Below are positions 3,453 to 13,369 of a stretch of 64,000 nt of DNA, piece after piece. The position numbers were made by a program, and so were the translations under genes. This DNA comes from a virus. Numbering within the stretch: the stretch's first letter is position 1; every line of letters begins with the position of its first letter. The notes under the pieces are model-generated. The model was not told the DNA's origin. It was given only the letters and a program-made list of their open reading frames with translations, and searched no databases. The DNA lies in IMG/VR virus record IMGVR_UViG_3300030329_003925, positions 13,220 through 77,219 of that record, one strand, 5' to 3'.

Positions 3453-4142
3453 TTACTTTTGCGATTTTAAAAATTCCTCCACTGCGCTAACCGGCACAAT
3501 CAACCCAACATCCTCGATAATGGTAGGAAGATTTGTAAGATCTGTTCCAACGCTTACCGCTGAAACAACTCCGACAATCTTTCCGTGCCTATCGAGAACT
3601 AGAGAGCCAGACGCCCCCTTCCAAATATAGGAATGAACAATGGTCATGAAGCCATCATATCCAGCAACATACCCTTTAATCGTAAGCAGACCCATTGAGT
3701 TTGGGTACCCGCTGTAAATTATTTCGTCTCCTATGTTGTGTTGGCGTGCAACGCGCCACCGAACTGGCTCTTTCGTCATCATGCCCGCAATCGACACCAA
3801 AGCAACATCAGAATAAGAATCGAGGAACACTACTTCACCGATAATTATTTCTTTGTTGCCCGTTATCATCGCAGTAGGAGAGCCGTCCACCACATGAGCG
3901 GCAGTTAAAATATAATGCTCCCCTTTGTGGGTGACGTAAGCGCCACTTCCGCTTATCTTGTTACCCCATTCGTCAAAAGACGCAATCTTGACCGCTGCAT
4001 TTCTGCTTCGGTGCTCCAAACCGCTGTTAAACAGCGAAACGTGTTCAATGCTTTCGAATGTAGGAAGCGTATCGATATCACAATCAACAGGCGTACACCC
4101 AAACAGCATAGACACTAGAACTAGCCTAGTTAAAACCCCCAT
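3453..4142 (-). CDS. Trypsin-like serine protease, probable lipoprotein
   Basis: Lipobox LFGC; catalytic triad TAAHV / DVAL / GASGS. Confidence 0.85.
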   Translation of the reverse strand: MGVLTRLVLVSMLFGCTPVDCDIDTLPTFESIEHVSLFNSGLEHRSRNAAVKIASFDEWGNKISGSGAYVTHKGEHYILTAAHVVDGSPTAMITGNKEIIIGEVVFLDSYSDVALVSIAGMMTKEPVRWRVARQHNIGDEIIYSGYPNSMGLLTIKGYVAGYDGFMTIVHSYIWKGASGSLVLDRHGKIVGVVSAVSVGTDLTNLPTIIEDVGLIVPVSAVEEFLKSQK

Positions 4143-4220
4143 AATCTTATCCCCCTATTATTATATAGGGGACGGAAAGCAATAATTCGCTAAACGTCGT
4201 AATTTAGCAATCTTTCGAGC

Positions 4221-5153
4221 TTAAACGTATTCGTCCACGTCTTTTTTGAGAGTGGTTGCGTTCTTCTGAGCTTTTAAAGCCGCTTGCTTAGCGTCTGGAG
4301 AGTTCAGAAAATATGTGTTGACGTTTCGTGACAACTTATCCATCTGGTCATAGATCTCTGTGAGATTGTCACCGAGTTGGTCGGCATACTTTTGCGCAAT
4401 CTTTTTAATGTTCTCTCGGGACCCTAAATCGAGTGTCCCCAAGAAATACTCGTCTTTTTCAATGTCTCTCGTATAAATTCCACTGCTTAAATCATACGAA
4501 TCAAAATCTCCCGCAAACCCGCCTTCCCTATTTCCTATCGTAAACGAATAGAAATCAATACTCACGACAGTTCCGGTTTTGTGCTCTCTATTTTTAAGCG
4601 CCACAATATATTTTATTGGCTGCTGATATTTCTCAATTGCCGTTTCCAAGTTTTGCCAAGAGCCCTTGATATATTTGGGACCCGCAAACAGCAACTTCAG
4701 ACTCAGGGGCTGTCCTTCTGCGTCGAGGAGATCTTCAATAGCTTGATAGCGCCCGCCCGGTGTGGGAACCTGACGAGCCTGACCCCCTAAAAGCACAGCC
4801 AAGATAGATTCGAATAAGAATCCGCCCGTCTTATCGTTAAAATCGTAGATTAAAGATGCAAGAGAGTCCAGAAAAACAAGATTGCCGAGAATCTCAGGAA
4901 TATCCTTGGTGGCTACACAGGCTTCGTCACAATCTTTTACAAACTGCTGAAGAGATGCGATTTTTTCACCCAGCGTGTTACCTTTGATTTTGGACGTAAA
5001 CATTTCAATAATCTGACGATCATCGGTTCCCGGCTCACCCCACTTCTCTGAAATTTTAAAGCTCGGAAGGGAAATGGTTCCCTTTTCACCGCCTTTTTCC
5101 AATTGGGCTTCTTCGGATAGAAATTTATTCCAATTTTCGAATAAGAGATTCAT
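4221..5153 (-). CDS. Leader-bearing protein with a possible restriction-endonuclease-like (PD-(D/E)xK variant) domain
   Basis: MNLLFENWNKFLSEE leader; GFLFE...IEDLL...SLKLL pattern. Confidence 0.4.
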   Translation of the reverse strand: MNLLFENWNKFLSEEAQLEKGGEKGTISLPSFKISEKWGEPGTDDRQIIEMFTSKIKGNTLGEKIASLQQFVKDCDEACVATKDIPEILGNLVFLDSLASLIYDFNDKTGGFLFESILAVLLGGQARQVPTPGGRYQAIEDLLDAEGQPLSLKLLFAGPKYIKGSWQNLETAIEKYQQPIKYIVALKNREHKTGTVVSIDFYSFTIGNREGGFAGDFDSYDLSSGIYTRDIEKDEYFLGTLDLGSRENIKKIAQKYADQLGDNLTEIYDQMDKLSRNVNTYFLNSPDAKQAALKAQKNATTLKKDVDEYV

Positions 5154-5773
5154 TTTTTGACAAGCTCCTTATTAACTATGTCGTAGCCGTCAACAACGCC
5201 AATGTTAAAATAGTCGAAACCGTCCAGAAGTGCTATCTTTTGCTCGGCAAAGTCCCCCAGCATATTATATACGCTCACCTGCCCAACCACTTCTGTAAAC
5301 AAGGCTGGTGCTGCTGCTGGGGGTAAAGTCTTTAAGTGTGCATTGTAGGCTGCATACTCGCCCCTCAAGGTAAATTCTGTCCCCCTTGAGCCAATTGCTT
5401 GAATATGTGACATATAATCGTGGATGGCTCTAAACTTGGCATTCGTAACTTCGTCAAAGATGTCGTGATCAGCATCAATGGTGGCGATTCTCATCTTGCC
5501 GGTTGTATTTACTTCATCACGCAGTTCTTGTGCCGATTCATATGGGTGATAGTCTACGAACTCCACGTCCACTCTTGATTGAATCTGTTTAAACATCTTT
5601 TCGATAAAAGGAACCATAGCTTCGAAACTGGGAACAGCCCTTTGTTCAAATTTTGGAGCAGCCATATAAGCATCGGCAACAAGTTGAGCATACAAGTCCC
5701 AGCCGTTAGGACCGGGCTTGAGCATCAGCTTCTCGTTGAGGAAACCTCTCCAATTTTCAAAAAGGTTCTGCAC
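5150..5773 (-). CDS. Leader-bearing hypothetical protein
   Basis: MQNLFENWRGFLNE leader; FRAIHDYMSH motif. Confidence 0.6.
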   Translation of the reverse strand: MQNLFENWRGFLNEKLMLKPGPNGWDLYAQLVADAYMAAPKFEQRAVPSFEAMVPFIEKMFKQIQSRVDVEFVDYHPYESAQELRDEVNTTGKMRIATIDADHDIFDEVTNAKFRAIHDYMSHIQAIGSRGTEFTLRGEYAAYNAHLKTLPPAAAPALFTEVVGQVSVYNMLGDFAEQKIALLDGFDYFNIGVVDGYDIVNKELVKK

Positions 5774-5778
5774 TAGTT

Positions 5779-6807
5779 TTACCCTTTCTGCTTTTGGGAA
5801 GGGGCTTTCGTGCCATTCTCCATCAAGCTGGACGGGTCTTGGGTGCTTAGGAATTCGATCACTTCTTCGCGATTTTCTAGCTCCCGCTTACCTTTTCCGG
5901 TAAACCCTATCTGAGCCATGTCTTCGGCTCCTTCGGCTTCAAGGCGATCTATGAGTTCTTCGTCGCTTAAATCGGAGAAATCACCTACGGGCAAAACCAT
6001 TCCAAGGTTGCCCTCTCGGATATTGCGAAGCTCCTCTCTTATTATTTCTTCAAGTTGCTCACTAATTTTTTTCGCCCGCCTTGTCACAGGCTTGCGAGGT
6101 CTAGAACTCGCCTTGGTTGCCGCATGTGAGCGTTGTGCGCCCATTCCTTGCGTCCGTGGAAATTCTTCACCTTTCTCGGGCGTCATCATAAGCTCCTGTT
6201 CGGCTTCATAAGCATCGTGGTCGGAAATATAGCGGTCTTCAAGTCCTCTGGTATATTCCGATGGATCATAATCTGGCTTGTAAGAACGAGCTTCTTCATC
6301 TTGAGCCTGCTGCTCTAGTTCGGCAGTCAAGCTATGATGCATTTCTTCTAACTCTTCGACGCTCATCTCATCGAACTTAATCCAGCGAGGTCGAATGCCG
6401 TTCACATACTTGTAAAGATCATAAATAGATGCCGATAGAGCATCATGAAGTTCTTCGGGAGGAATGGGTTTCCACTCTTCTTCCGACGCAGTATCAGCCT
6501 CTAGAGCTTCTTTTACAAGTTTTGAAACATTAATTTTCTTCAAAGCTTCTTTTGCGAGGGCTGCTGGGTTGCCACGCACACCCGCTGCCCTTCCATAGAC
6601 GGCTTGTCTCTGACCAATATTCAGAGGATCTTCCCCCGTAAAGGCAGCAGAAAGATAATCAATACTTAAATCTAATTTTTTCATCTGATTCAGTAACTGA
6701 GACAGGAGGTCTTCGAGTCCCGATGCTACAAAGCGTACTTCGCCACTTTCATTCGACTCAAAGCCTTCATATAAAAGTTTTTTTGCTTGTGCTTTGCTGA
6801 TTTTCAT
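5779..6807 (-). CDS. Acidic leader-bearing hypothetical protein (possible head internal protein)
   Basis: MKISKAQAKKLLYE leader; internal leader-like repeats (ISEQLEEIIREEL). Confidence 0.55.
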   Translation of the reverse strand: MKISKAQAKKLLYEGFESNESGEVRFVASGLEDLLSQLLNQMKKLDLSIDYLSAAFTGEDPLNIGQRQAVYGRAAGVRGNPAALAKEALKKINVSKLVKEALEADTASEEEWKPIPPEELHDALSASIYDLYKYVNGIRPRWIKFDEMSVEELEEMHHSLTAELEQQAQDEEARSYKPDYDPSEYTRGLEDRYISDHDAYEAEQELMMTPEKGEEFPRTQGMGAQRSHAATKASSRPRKPVTRRAKKISEQLEEIIREELRNIREGNLGMVLPVGDFSDLSDEELIDRLEAEGAEDMAQIGFTGKGKRELENREEVIEFLSTQDPSSLMENGTKAPSQKQKG

Positions 6808-7148
6808 TTTGTTCTATCCTTATCGTCGTCGCGTTTTGCGGGATGCTTGTGACCCTCTTCGATAGTTGGCTCTATGTCTTCTGCTAAGAGGTTTCTAACA
6901 ATTGTGTCTCCAAATTTCATGTCATAGATGCCAATTTCACCGCTCTCGTTGAGTGAGTGCCAAAGCACTTTGCCAACTGGGTTTTTGATTCCGTATCTTT
7001 CTTGTAAGGCTGAACTCAGCCTTCCTTCCTTCATTCAAGTGTGTTCTAGGTCTTTTAGCTCATCTTCGAGTTCTTTTTTTCTCTTTGCTTGAGCTTTTGT
7101 AAGTTCTTCCTTGATGAGATTTCTAAGCTGTGTTTTTGTGATTTTCAT
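6804..7148 (-). CDS. Candidate selenoprotein (114 aa if UGA38 is read through), with class B leader and His-rich metal-binding pattern
   Basis: The 37-aa ORF MKITKTQLRNLIKEEL...LEHT (7035-7148) is in frame with ORF 6804-7034, separated by one TGA; a hairpin follows 11 nt downstream. Confidence 0.55.
7006..7023 (-). promoter_or_regulatory. Bacterial SECIS-like hairpin AAGGCUG-AGUU-CAGCCUU
   Basis: Perfect 7-8 bp stem with a GU-containing loop, starting exactly 11 nt 3' of the in-frame UGA (7035-7037). Confidence 0.55.
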
Positions 7149-7149
7149 T

Positions 7150-7368
7150 TTATGCTCCTATCGCTTTTTTCTGGGCGGGTGTGAGGATATTGTCTTGGAT
7201 TGCTCTGATAACCTCGTCGGCTGTGGTATTGTAGGCTTTCGTAACCCTGCCTATTAAGCCCTCTATCTCGTCACCAACTGCCACGCTTAACATTGGTCCA
7301 GTGTTTTCCGTCACGGATGCAAGTTCTTCCTTGATAATCTGTTTAAGTTGTGCTTTTGTGATTTTCAT
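7150..7368 (-). CDS. Small class B leader protein
   Basis: MKITKAQLKQIIKEEL N-terminus. Confidence 0.65.
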   Translation of the reverse strand: MKITKAQLKQIIKEELASVTENTGPMLSVAVGDEIEGLIGRVTKAYNTTADEVIRAIQDNILTPAQKKAIGA

Positions 7369-7664
7369 TAAATTTTATCCCTTGTACATTCTTCAGGCAA
7401 ATGAGACTTGGGGTCTTCTTTGTAAGTCTCAAGTGTCGGCTGCTCCCAGTTTAAAAGAGGGCAATAAAGGCGATGATCGCTCTTGTCTTTCAAGAACAGT
7501 TCCAGACCGAGAACATCATTTCTCAAGCCCTCGACACCTTTTTTGCAATCCTCCACATCTTCATCCGCAGAATCCTGCTGCTCTTGCGGAGCAGGTTCAA
7601 CCACGGGGTAGGGAGGATAGAATGTCGTGGACCCTATAAGGGGGACCAAAAGCCATTTGCTCAT
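7368..7664 (-). CDS. Hypothetical exported protein (possible lysis/spanin-associated)
   Basis: Hydrophobic N-terminus; three Cys; coupled to the upstream membrane coiled-coil gene. Confidence 0.4.
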   Translation of the reverse strand: MSKWLLVPLIGSTTFYPPYPVVEPAPQEQQDSADEDVEDCKKGVEGLRNDVLGLELFLKDKSDHRLYCPLLNWEQPTLETYKEDPKSHLPEECTRDKI

Positions 7665-7933
7665 TGTGCCGTCACCAATTGTTCAATACGCTGCAACGCA
7701 GCCTTCATATACTCTATATCTTTTTCGATGGAGATGATTGCGCGGCTATTAGCCTCTGCTTCTTCCACCTTTTGCTCAAGGGCAACGACAGTTTCTTCTG
7801 CGTCACCAAGATCGTTTTCCAACTGCGCCACGGCAACGTTTACATTCCAAACCCATCCAGCTAGAGGGAGGACAACAACGCCGAGAACAACAGTGAATAT
7901 TTTCCATATCCATTCATTAGTCGTAGTAGCCAT
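7661..7933 (-). CDS. Membrane-anchored coiled-coil protein (i-spanin/holin-like)
   Basis: N-terminal TM helix followed by heptad coiled coil. Confidence 0.5.
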   Translation of the reverse strand: MATTTNEWIWKIFTVVLGVVVLPLAGWVWNVNVAVAQLENDLGDAEETVVALEQKVEEAEANSRAIISIEKDIEYMKAALQRIEQLVTAQ

Positions 7934-7936
7934 GTC

Positions 7937-8212
7937 TTAAATAGTTTTGACCCATTGTATTTCCTCTTCAGGATCAACTTTTTTCCTTGTCAGTTCTAGA
8001 CCAAAATATTTTATCGCACACCGCTTGACATAATCGGCGCTTGGTCGCCTATGAAAAACCAGTTTTCTAGGAACTACATACATCGTTCCGTAACGACAGT
8101 CGCGTATACCGGGTCCACAACTTGTAAGCCCAACGCCGCAATCTCCTCGTTCAAATAAACCATCAGGATGCGAAATACCAACGAAATAGACAAAATAATT
8201 GTAATCCTCCAC
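7937..8212 (-). CDS. Hypothetical protein
   Basis: ORF with G-rich RBS, GTG start. Confidence 0.5.
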   Translation of the reverse strand: MEDYNYFVYFVGISHPDGLFERGDCGVGLTSCGPGIRDCRYGTMYVVPRKLVFHRRPSADYVKRCAIKYFGLELTRKKVDPEEEIQWVKTI

Positions 8213-8256
8213 AAATTCGCCCCCCTAAAGTATATAGGGGGCAAAAGTGCAATCGC

Positions 8257-9591
8257 TTACGGACACTCTCCATAGATGCCATAATCGACTTCTATAAGGC
8301 TGTCGGCAAGAGGAGCATAGTCAACATCGAAGTTTATAGAATTTGTGCTCGGATCATAATACCAGCCATCTGTCATCAGAAAGCCGTCGATGTAAACTTC
8401 GATGCTGTCAACGATAGGATCGTCCGACAACAGATACTGAAGAATAGGAACCAAGGAGTCCTCGGCTAATTGCTCAACTTGGTAGCCCCAATCCGAAGTG
8501 CAAATATCGAAGAATTGACCCGAAGATAGAAATACAGCCTCGTCATATCTCTCGGCAGGGTCAGCACAAGACGAAGAAGGATAAAGTCCAGCCACAGAGT
8601 GCAAGCTAAAAAGGGTGCCTGACGATTTGGTCGCCATCATGTCCGAGACATAATTGGTAACAGGGTCGAGAGAGAAATCATCCTCGTCTGAAACGATGAT
8701 GACCGCAAGATTTGCAGCCTCTCGGAAAAATACGCTCCCCAAGCCAGCAGTGCCCCCCGGCAACAAAGCGTCTCTTGCCATTTGCAGCCCTTTCTCGGTC
8801 GCGTTGCCACTTGTTCCAGCCACAATTGCATTTTGGAAGTCCAACAATAGGCTGGGGCTCGTAGGGGTCATTACGTTTCCGCGCAACATGGTGGAATCTG
8901 TTGTTATGACCCCGATATGGAAATCAGCCCCGCTTATCGAGAGGGGGTTAATGAAAAGATCAGCATTGCTTGCTAACTCGGTTTGTTCATCACTCATCGA
9001 ACAAGAGTTGTCGATGACAAAAAGAATATCCAGCATGACCTGCTCCTCTTGGATAAACTCGTCAGTAACATCTCCCCCACGAATGCCTTCTCCATCTTGC
9101 CCAATAATAACAGAGGGGTCAGTTAGGTCATTGGAATCCACGGTCACATAGCCCAAGTGATAATCTTCTTCGTTGGGCATATATTCCACGCTTATAAAAG
9201 CGGAGGCACCGGGAACCAAAATCCACGGCAACCCTCCGTAGGCGAGATAGTCCACATTCATAGCCAAATCGTCTGGACCACTGTAGTGAAGCTTGTCCAC
9301 AATTAGGTCGAGACCTCCGACACTCTTAATCTCGATCATTAGCTCCATGGGACACTCCAACAGAGTGTCTCCGAACTCGTGAAAAACAGGTGTCACCTCG
9401 ATTTCAGCCGTTAGCTCTGGTGGTTCTGGGTCCGTTTCGGTATTGACGATCAACGGCGGATCTCTGTCCGGTATCGTCGTTTCAACAACGGGTGGTGCAT
9501 CTGGTGCATCGACAACCAGATCCGAAATGTGATAGTCACTCTTGCAGGCTGTTAACAGCCCCAAAATAAAAAATAAATTCCCCCAACGCAT
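8257..9591 (-). CDS. Lipoprotein with Ig-like (ASH-type) domain and VWA domain (myxobacterial CglB-like architecture)
   Basis: Lipobox LTAC; MIDAS DILFVIDNSCSM, IGVITTD, IIVSDEDD. Confidence 0.75.
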   Translation of the reverse strand: MRWGNLFFILGLLTACKSDYHISDLVVDAPDAPPVVETTIPDRDPPLIVNTETDPEPPELTAEIEVTPVFHEFGDTLLECPMELMIEIKSVGGLDLIVDKLHYSGPDDLAMNVDYLAYGGLPWILVPGASAFISVEYMPNEEDYHLGYVTVDSNDLTDPSVIIGQDGEGIRGGDVTDEFIQEEQVMLDILFVIDNSCSMSDEQTELASNADLFINPLSISGADFHIGVITTDSTMLRGNVMTPTSPSLLLDFQNAIVAGTSGNATEKGLQMARDALLPGGTAGLGSVFFREAANLAVIIVSDEDDFSLDPVTNYVSDMMATKSSGTLFSLHSVAGLYPSSSCADPAERYDEAVFLSSGQFFDICTSDWGYQVEQLAEDSLVPILQYLLSDDPIVDSIEVYIDGFLMTDGWYYDPSTNSINFDVDYAPLADSLIEVDYGIYGECP

Positions 9592-9634
9592 TCATAAGCC
9601 CCCCTTATTATGCATGTCTATAAGTACATAGGGG

Positions 9635-10090
9635 CTACTTTTCTATTTCTCTTATTGTGCCGCAAACATTTATAGGCTCTATGGGTTCATAGTCGCTTAT
9701 TTGGAAGTCATTTGACTCCATACTTTTCGCTTCTACAAGGGGGTTTGTAGCTATCGTAATATGAGGGTGGTTGGGACCCCTCATCGGAAGTGCAACGCCT
9801 TCTAGGTCCACTAGAGCGCTTGCTACGCGGTCGTTTAAAGCGATACCCACAACTTTGACGCATAAACCAGTCCCAAGCCAGCGAGAAGGTAGCCTTCTCT
9901 TCATTTCTGGAGGGCTGATGATGGTCATGTGGTGTGCAATGGGCGTCCAGCCCTCTGGGGCATACGGAACCAAGGCTCGGTGACCCAAATCGTTGAGGAC
10001 AAGCCCTGTATACTCGATATGTTTAGCCATATCGGTCCCAAGGGAGATCTCGGACAGATGATCGCGCCAATTTTCAAGTAGGAGCTTCAT
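9635..10090 (-). CDS. 2H phosphoesterase with class A leader
   Basis: Two HxT motifs (HMTI, HITI); MKLLLENWRDHLSE leader. Confidence 0.75.
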   Translation of the reverse strand: MKLLLENWRDHLSEISLGTDMAKHIEYTGLVLNDLGHRALVPYAPEGWTPIAHHMTIISPPEMKRRLPSRWLGTGLCVKVVGIALNDRVASALVDLEGVALPMRGPNHPHITIATNPLVEAKSMESNDFQISDYEPIEPINVCGTIREIEK

Positions 10091-13139: not shown

Positions 13140-13369
13140 TTCTTTGCCATCTCCATCTCAATGTCATCAGCCATCGTTCTAAGCACCCTTATAACATGTG
13201 CATCGCCGCGCAACTCCTGTAAATCAATCACCGCGTTGACGAGCTTGTCTCCGATTTCCGCGTCCACCTTCCAGTCATAGTCGCGTGTAGTGCCATCTGG
13301 GTATGGGAATTCGCCTTCTTCTAGCTCTTCCTTAATGATTTGTTTTAATTTTGCTTTTGTGATTTTCAT
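13136..13369 (-). CDS. Small class B leader protein
   Basis: MKITKAKLKQIIKEEL. Confidence 0.65.
   Translation of the reverse strand: MKITKAKLKQIIKEELEEGEFPYPDGTTRDYDWKVDAEIGDKLVNAVIDLQELRGDAHVIRVLRTMADDIEMEMAKK

Follow-up and report, generated by a model that had tools for sequence, protein, structure and literature searches.

A probable selenoprotein gene with an in-frame UGA codon and a conserved hairpin in marine phages

The window analyzed here is a 64,000-nucleotide stretch of viral DNA (positions 13,220 to 77,219 of the IMG/VR record IMGVR_UViG_3300030329_003925). On its minus strand lie two open reading frames (ORFs) that share one frame and are separated by a single TGA. The upstream ORF starts at ATG 7148-7146 and runs for 37 codons (MKITKTQLRNLIKEELTKAQAKRKKELEDELKDLEHT, ending in LEHT; 7148-7038) into TGA 7037-7035. 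Directly 3′ of this TGA is an ATG at 7034, and the same frame stays open for 76 codons (MKEGRLSS...WHSL...YDMKF...EGHKH) up to TGA 6806-6804. The terminal TGA overlaps the ATG of the next gene (6807). An initial annotation, made from the sequence alone, had described these two ORFs, the single TGA between them, a downstream ATG with no recognizable Shine-Dalgarno sequence, and a hairpin with a GU-containing loop 11 nt past the TGA. The ORFs, the continuing frame and the hairpin are exactly as it described, and inspection of the sequence likewise found no Shine-Dalgarno-like purine run 5′ of ATG 7034. It had further proposed that the TGA encodes selenocysteine (Sec) in an H-x-U motif. This proposal is well supported by a TGA-or-Cys pattern at the site, by conservation of the frame, and by co-variation in a hairpin of the selenocysteine insertion sequence (SECIS) type, and we consider it probable that 7148-6804 is one gene for a 113-residue selenoprotein with Sec at UGA38. 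The features of the locus are as follows.

6804..7148, minus strand: recoded gene, 113 codons plus stop, with a leader, a charged helix, UGA38 and a predicted SH3-like domain; ends in TGA 6806-6804
7155..7159, minus strand: Shine-Dalgarno sequence AGGAG, 6 nt 5′ of ATG 7148, read off the sequence
7101..7148, minus strand: N-terminal leader MKITKTQLRNLIKEEL (class B), also on the genes at 7368 and 6807
7041..7043, minus strand: His36, invariant
7035..7037, minus strand: in-frame UGA, proposed Sec38 in the motif H36-T-U38, with a TGA/Cys pattern in relatives
7006..7023, minus strand: SECIS-like hairpin, stem 7023-7017 with 7012-7006, loop AGUU 7016-7013, 11-nt spacer
6855..7049, minus strand: predicted SH3/KOW/Tudor-like beta-barrel, residues ~34-98, from an AlphaFold2 model and weak fold matches
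6957..6959, minus strand: His64 of WHSLNE, invariant in a 13-sequence alignment and nearly so in distant representatives
6843..6851, minus strand: His100-x-His102, invariant in the 13-sequence alignment and nearly so in distant representatives

Relatives of the gene were fetched as DNA from 27 viral and 80 metagenomic loci (marine), two of which are truncated at the junction, leaving 105. The junction codon is TGA in 103/105 and TGT in the other two; TAA, TAG, TGG and other sense codons are found in none. Every related locus examined stays in frame through the TGA, with sequence conserved on both sides, and the part upstream of the TGA varies from 37 to ~280 codons. GGAG-like sites precede the leader ATG in several relatives too. 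Further clades, with the motifs H-Q-U-F-H-H-A-T-W-G, H-N-U-A-T-H-M-E-W-K, G-H-T-U-[LA]-T-H-V and H-K-U-L-E-E-G, were reached via database proteins. There the codon is TGA in 36/36 informative loci, and it is TGA also in loci L120-L130, L141 and L142. The codon that follows the TGA is ATG in 82, GTG in 6 and CTG, CTA or CTT in 15 of the 103 loci; in the further clades it is TTT, GCG, AGT, CTN or ATA, and genuine Trp residues nearby are encoded by TGG. In clades without a start after the TGA, the conserved domain has no start of its own, so only decoding of the UGA can make it. The initial annotation had considered that homologs might exist as two separate proteins, which is not so: many loci have a Leu, Ala, Phe, Ile or Ser codon after the TGA. 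At the level of sequence, the comparison establishes that the UGA of the recoded gene is decoded.

The nucleotides around the UGA are themselves unusually conserved. In other runs, the contigs of related phages reach 90% identity or more with the window in two places only, around 6985-7057, which holds the UGA and the hairpin, and over the leader at 7121-7153. These are the most conserved nucleotides of the locus, and depth rises up to ~13-fold there (four runs, many contigs of diverged relatives). Positions 7035-7037 are covered by contigs of four other marine metagenome runs from three studies, with no variant letters; two of these four runs hold near-identical contigs of the whole stretch and are possibly the window's own source. 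An assembly error at the TGA, which the initial annotation had named as a concern, is excluded, since the same TGA stands in well over 100 other assemblies as well as in the contigs from other runs. No RNA dataset with the locus was listed among public runs.

The second line of evidence is the residue that replaces the UGA. In a 13-sequence alignment, the invariant positions are His36, U/Cys38, Gly59, His64, Leu66, Tyr75, Asp76, His100 and His102. Where the motif reads H-T-U-M-K-E-G, as in the window, or H-T-U-L-T-H-V, the U is matched by the Cys of locus L021 (H-S-C-A-N-H-V) and by that of Kyanoviridae proteins (H-D-C-[AS]-S-K-V); L022, L131 and L132 also have Cys at the site. When 1.84 billion cluster representatives were searched with a profile, 263 proved to be family members. 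Among the 59 distant representatives that cover the column there are 33 with Cys and 26 with "W", and nothing else. The "W" entries stem from gene calling with TGA read as Trp (code 4), and all those whose clade was reached as DNA have TGA. The Cys-form homologs are continuous proteins. A search for homologs with Cys or another TGA at residue 38 had been suggested in the initial annotation, and both were found, TGA in 103/105 loci and Cys in 33/59 representatives. It had also likened the site to an H-x-C...H...YDVxF...HxH pattern in small proteins of T4-like phages; the pattern is real in T4-like cyanophages (Kyanoviridae), and its Cys aligns with the UGA. The alignments thus show UGA38 to correspond to the Cys of homologs.

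Public databases hold the family either as a truncated ORF of 76-80 residues or in full length, with W standing for the UGA (P0012, P0092, P0095, P0106, P0112, P0122 and others); in P0012 the true terminal TGA is also read as W. The database forms of the family are a systematic annotation artifact.

The third line of evidence is the hairpin. Its sequence in the window is AAGGCUG-AGUU-CAGCCUU, a 7-bp stem that begins exactly 11 nt after the UGA, with 18 nt from the UGA to the loop and a minimum free energy (MFE) of -10.4 to -11.1 kcal/mol. The bacterial SECIS (bSECIS) consensus comprises a loop of 3-9 nt, a stem of 4-16 bp, a G at loop position 1 or 2 (as a rule with G or U as the next base), a UGA-to-loop distance of 16-37 nt, and an MFE of -7.5 kcal/mol or lower (PMC13188914, including the legend of its Fig. 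2). Judged against these published constraints, the window hairpin lies within every one of them (PMC13188914).

In the window's clade, 48 distinct sequences were compared, and 95% of cells are paired. Pair 17-30 is AU in 28, GC in 18 and GU in 2 sequences, and pair 18-29 is GC in 42 and UA in 5. Neither this level of pairing nor the co-variation was equaled in any of 500 shuffles, and in slid registers 15-57% of cells pair. In these pair switches, changes in a Lys/Arg codon go together with changes at the third base of an Ala codon, or with Asp, a link that the protein does not explain. Synonymous sites within the hairpin are frozen, with Leu44 as CTG in 48/48, Ser45 as AGT in 48/48 and Ser46 as TCA in 46/48, and the flanking codons are free to vary; window-wide, CTG, AGT and TCA account for no more than 12-16% of Leu or Ser codons. 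In a second clade, H-T/N-U-[LAS]-T-H, another hairpin occupies this position. It has 7-8 bp and a loop of GGG, GGA or GUC, lies 12 nt past the UGA and shows three compensatory pairs, and 0/500 shuffles scored as high. A third clade has the loop GGUCA. The Cys forms have no consistent hairpin at the corresponding place. Comparison across these sequences shows a SECIS-type hairpin under selection, and the co-variation among related phages that the initial annotation had asked about is present.

The strongest competitor to Sec insertion is programmed read-through, in which an ordinary tRNA for Trp or a near-cognate one for Cys would decode the UGA, the hairpin would act as stimulator and a minority fusion would be the product, as in Qbeta A1. 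We regard this as improbable. The UGA is clearly decoded, and hairpins 3′ of stop codons are able to promote read-through. No Sec machinery was found in the incomplete phage records searched. However, read-through expects tolerance of sense variants such as TGG, and only TGA or Cys codons are found at the site. Cys is the sole standard residue, in 33 representatives, and no lineage has TGG or another sense codon, though TGA to TGG is a single change. The residue also lies in an invariant H-x-[U/C] motif beside three invariant His, and the hairpins of three clades have a G[G/U] loop and bacterial SECIS spacing.

Much the same pattern makes it very unlikely that the locus holds two genes, a 37-residue leader peptide followed by a 76-residue protein made by UGA-AUG termination/re-initiation coupling. 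In favor of two genes, TGAATG is a junction typical of coupling, most homologs appear in gene calls as proteins of 76-80 residues, and ATG or GTG follows the TGA in 88/103 loci. Against this, in ~70 or more distinct sequences TGA is the only stop at the junction, with no case of TAA or TAG, whereas the commonest stop in the window is TAA; the frame is always kept, whole clades have a Leu, Ala, Phe, Ile or Ser codon in place of a start, and the Cys-form homologs are continuous. The invariant His36 is upstream of the TGA, and a leader-only product of 37 residues would have no cargo.

Genome-wide reassignment of TGA in the phage or host (code 4 Trp or code 25 Gly) has a negligible chance of being right, for although public gene calls show W, and once G, at the site, 38/97 window ORFs have TGA as their stop, in many cases backed up by a further stop a few codons on, the recoded gene itself ends in a TGA that overlaps the next ATG, no suppressor tRNA was found in the same five phage records that were searched for Sec genes (below), true Trp codons in the family are TGG, and in-frame TGAs are not spread through conserved window genes. 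The stops of the 97 ORFs are TAA in 43, TGA in 38 and TAG in 16. The initial annotation had held that TGA is an ordinary stop elsewhere in the window, with no global code change, and it is one, because so many ORFs end in it and often have a second stop nearby. Where a TGA elsewhere in the window joins two ORFs in the same frame, the junction has the look of an ordinary intergenic one.

Several points weigh against Sec at UGA38, which we infer from sequence comparison. The 81-nt context of the hairpin has a fold energy of z = -0.67 relative to shuffles, so that the hairpin alone is not significant. A loosely set filter that asks for an open frame to either side of a TGA and a SECIS-like hairpin accepts nine more TGAs of the window, all of them in implausible frames. 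As a single sequence, the hairpin is thus no better than chance. With ATG or GTG after the UGA in 88/103 loci of the window's clade, termination followed by re-initiation could occur there; such a side path may yield an untagged 76-residue protein without His36 and Sec38. One database protein, P0115, has Gly at the site (..LKHQ-G-MNEGK..), and the nearest relative seen as DNA, L120, has TGA. This Gly, seen in a protein record only, may come from a gene call under code 25 or from a genuine GGA variant. Finally, no tRNA-Sec, SelB, SelA or SelD was found in the five phage records searched, which are 43-68% complete, and selA, selB, selC and selD are presupposed in the host. The Sec model therefore requires a host that has a Sec system.

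In the proposed mechanism, translation would start at ATG 7148 behind a normal Shine-Dalgarno sequence. The mRNA hairpin 11 nt past UGA38 would recruit host SelB with Sec-tRNA(Sec), Sec would be inserted at UGA38, and translation would go on to TGA 6806-6804. The product would consist of the 16-residue leader, a charged helix and an SH3-like barrel with His36-x-Sec38 on its first strand. That Sec is the residue inserted, that host SelB is needed, what chemistry the His/Sec site has and that the protein is packaged in the virion are all points that we infer.

An AlphaFold2 model built with 70 homologs (mean predicted local distance difference test score 84) has a helix at residues 5-30 followed by a small barrel, the first strand of which (residues 33-44) runs across U38. 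A structure search gave KOW, Tudor and SH3 matches over residues 34-98 with Z of 4-5, all generic. The best fold match was KOW, with a Z of 5.3 and a root-mean-square deviation of 2.8 over 51 residues, tied with many other rows. Foldseek gave no match at E <= 0.001. The modeled domain is likely of the SH3-like fold class, which does not imply assignment to one family. Sequence searches of Pfam, PHROGs and PDB with the 76-residue ORF, the 37-residue ORF and the family profile gave no match, and a protein cluster search with the 76-residue ORF found only viral hypothetical clusters. The 113-residue protein has no CxxU or UxxC motif, and CxxU-type thiol chemistry is unlikely because it has no Cys at all. 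One Sec or Cys and four His are kept family-wide and suggest a metal or redox site. To judge from residue conservation, this site would most likely be formed by His36-x-Sec38, His64 and His100-x-His102.

The mechanism is the known bacterial one, and what is new is the phage carrier and the protein family. As in bacterial selenoprotein genes, of which E. coli fdhF is the prototype (PMC13188914), an in-frame UGA stands where homologs have Cys, and a stem-loop with G in the first two loop positions lies within the ORF just 3′ of the UGA. Unlike those genes, the present one is phage-carried rather than cellular, and its SelB dependence is putative. The family also differs from bacterial selenoprotein families in having no Pfam match, no CxxU or UxxC motif and no Cys at all. 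Poxvirus selenoproteins (PMC8310308) are likewise encoded by virus genes that rely on host Sec machinery, and the fowlpox SECIS is also in the coding region. However, these are captured cellular glutathione peroxidases with a eukaryotic SECIS in eukaryotic viruses, whereas the present case is a bacteriophage with a bacterial-type SECIS. The present family was found here only in viral sequences.

The Kyanoviridae Cys forms have the same domain, H-D-C...H...YDVLF...H-E-H. They differ from the present gene in having Cys rather than Sec, in lying inside larger proteins and in being without the hairpin, and their function is equally unassigned. Cys forms match only PHROGs without known function (22379, 11470) and phrog_764, which is labeled "cytidyltransferase". 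The Kyanoviridae Cys-form domain occurs in such "cytidyltransferase"/phrog_764 proteins, e.g., at NC_047718.1 126773-126904 and MT162468.2 147683-149371. The label probably spread from a neighboring gene and is uninformative on the Cys-form domain.

A 2021 review of recoding lists viral selenoproteins from only two poxviruses, the glutathione peroxidase homologs of molluscum contagiosum and fowlpox (PMC8310308). Phages and viruses are not mentioned in a 2026 review of bacterial selenoproteins (PMC13188914) or in the paper, also from 2026, on the BSepDB database of bacterial selenoproteins (PMC13326102). Full-text literature searches for phage selenoproteins found nothing relevant. The family is absent from the data set of the GOS selenoprotein survey and WHSLNE from its supplements; the new families GOS_A and GOS_B of that survey, considered as a match, are different proteins. 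Thus, we found no bacteriophage selenoprotein reported in the searchable literature, where Sec genes are known from cells and two poxviruses. If the Sec reading is true, a widespread family of marine phages depends on host SelA/B/C/D and on selenium, and public databases carry the gene cut into two ORFs by gene callers or wrongly called under code 4. The locus would also offer a compact natural UGA and SECIS module, in several hairpin variants, for studies of SelB recognition, and an SH3-like barrel with a Sec site rich in His would be a new chemistry for selenoproteins.

The window is part of a 77-kb IMG/VR virus record that is estimated to be 43% complete, and its genes are almost all on the minus strand. 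They include a DnaE-type polymerase, GroEL, ribonucleotide reductase, a CCA-adding enzyme, an endolysin, tRNAs and a transfer-messenger RNA (tmRNA). A BLASTN of positions 4000-10000 against cultured phages gave no match. TBLASTN with the polymerase and GroEL gave only distant matches (28-45% identity) across phages of many hosts, and these genes therefore give no host clue. The family profile found no relative in a set of one genome per prokaryote species. An Rfam scan of the whole record at the gathering threshold found only tRNAs and one tmRNA. Weak matches to the tRNA-Sec model in the phage records are actually tRNA-Leu(UAA) and other ordinary tRNAs. A one-piece tmRNA with the tag peptide ANNNNHFELALAA lies next to tRNA-Ile(UAU) and tRNA-Arg(UCU) outside the window (G000:C1:1445-1773, locus L143). 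This is a possible host clue.

The leader of the recoded gene is shared with its neighbors. The 16-residue leader MKITKxQLxxIIKEEL heads the genes at 7368, 7148 and 6807, and two leader types stand on neighboring, otherwise unrelated genes of the window.

7368-7321, 7148-7101 and 6807-6760, minus strand: class B leaders, MKITKxQLKxIIKEEL
5773-5729 and 5153-5109, minus strand: class A leaders, MxxLFENWxxFLxE

Most full-length relatives examined have the same leader, and some have an MKKLFENF-type or other N-terminus. Like the capsid targeting sequence (CTS) of T4 (IPI-III, Alt), this is a short amphipathic N-terminal leader on unrelated neighbors with an I-x-E motif (LIKE-E), and it has the sequence characters of the T4 CTS in being short, common to unrelated proteins and ended by (L/I)-x-E. 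It differs in having no sequence homology to the T4 CTS, and the replication genes of the window (DnaE-type polymerase, GroEL) are not T4-like. By analogy with T4, the leader is probably a capsid-loading tag. The leaders look like a portable targeting tag that may serve in capsid loading.

A broader and tentative scenario, which we think possible though on balance doubtful, is that marine phages load the selenoprotein into their capsids. The leader would be the head-targeting tag, the His4/Sec barrel would be metal- or redox-active in the virion or on injection, and Sec forms would be found only with Sec-capable hosts and Cys forms (cyanophages) elsewhere. If this reading were true, the UGA would serve as a marker of host range and link the fitness of the phage to the marine selenium supply.

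A trypsin-like serine protease (Pfam Trypsin_2, E 1e-15) is encoded at 3453-4142 on the minus strand, near the leader-tagged genes, and is a candidate enzyme for leader removal. In four related loci (L009, L011, L020 and L030), the gene continues in frame from a longer leader-tagged protein encoded upstream, giving two copies of the leader, one of them internal. These double-leader fusions suggest polyprotein-like processing.

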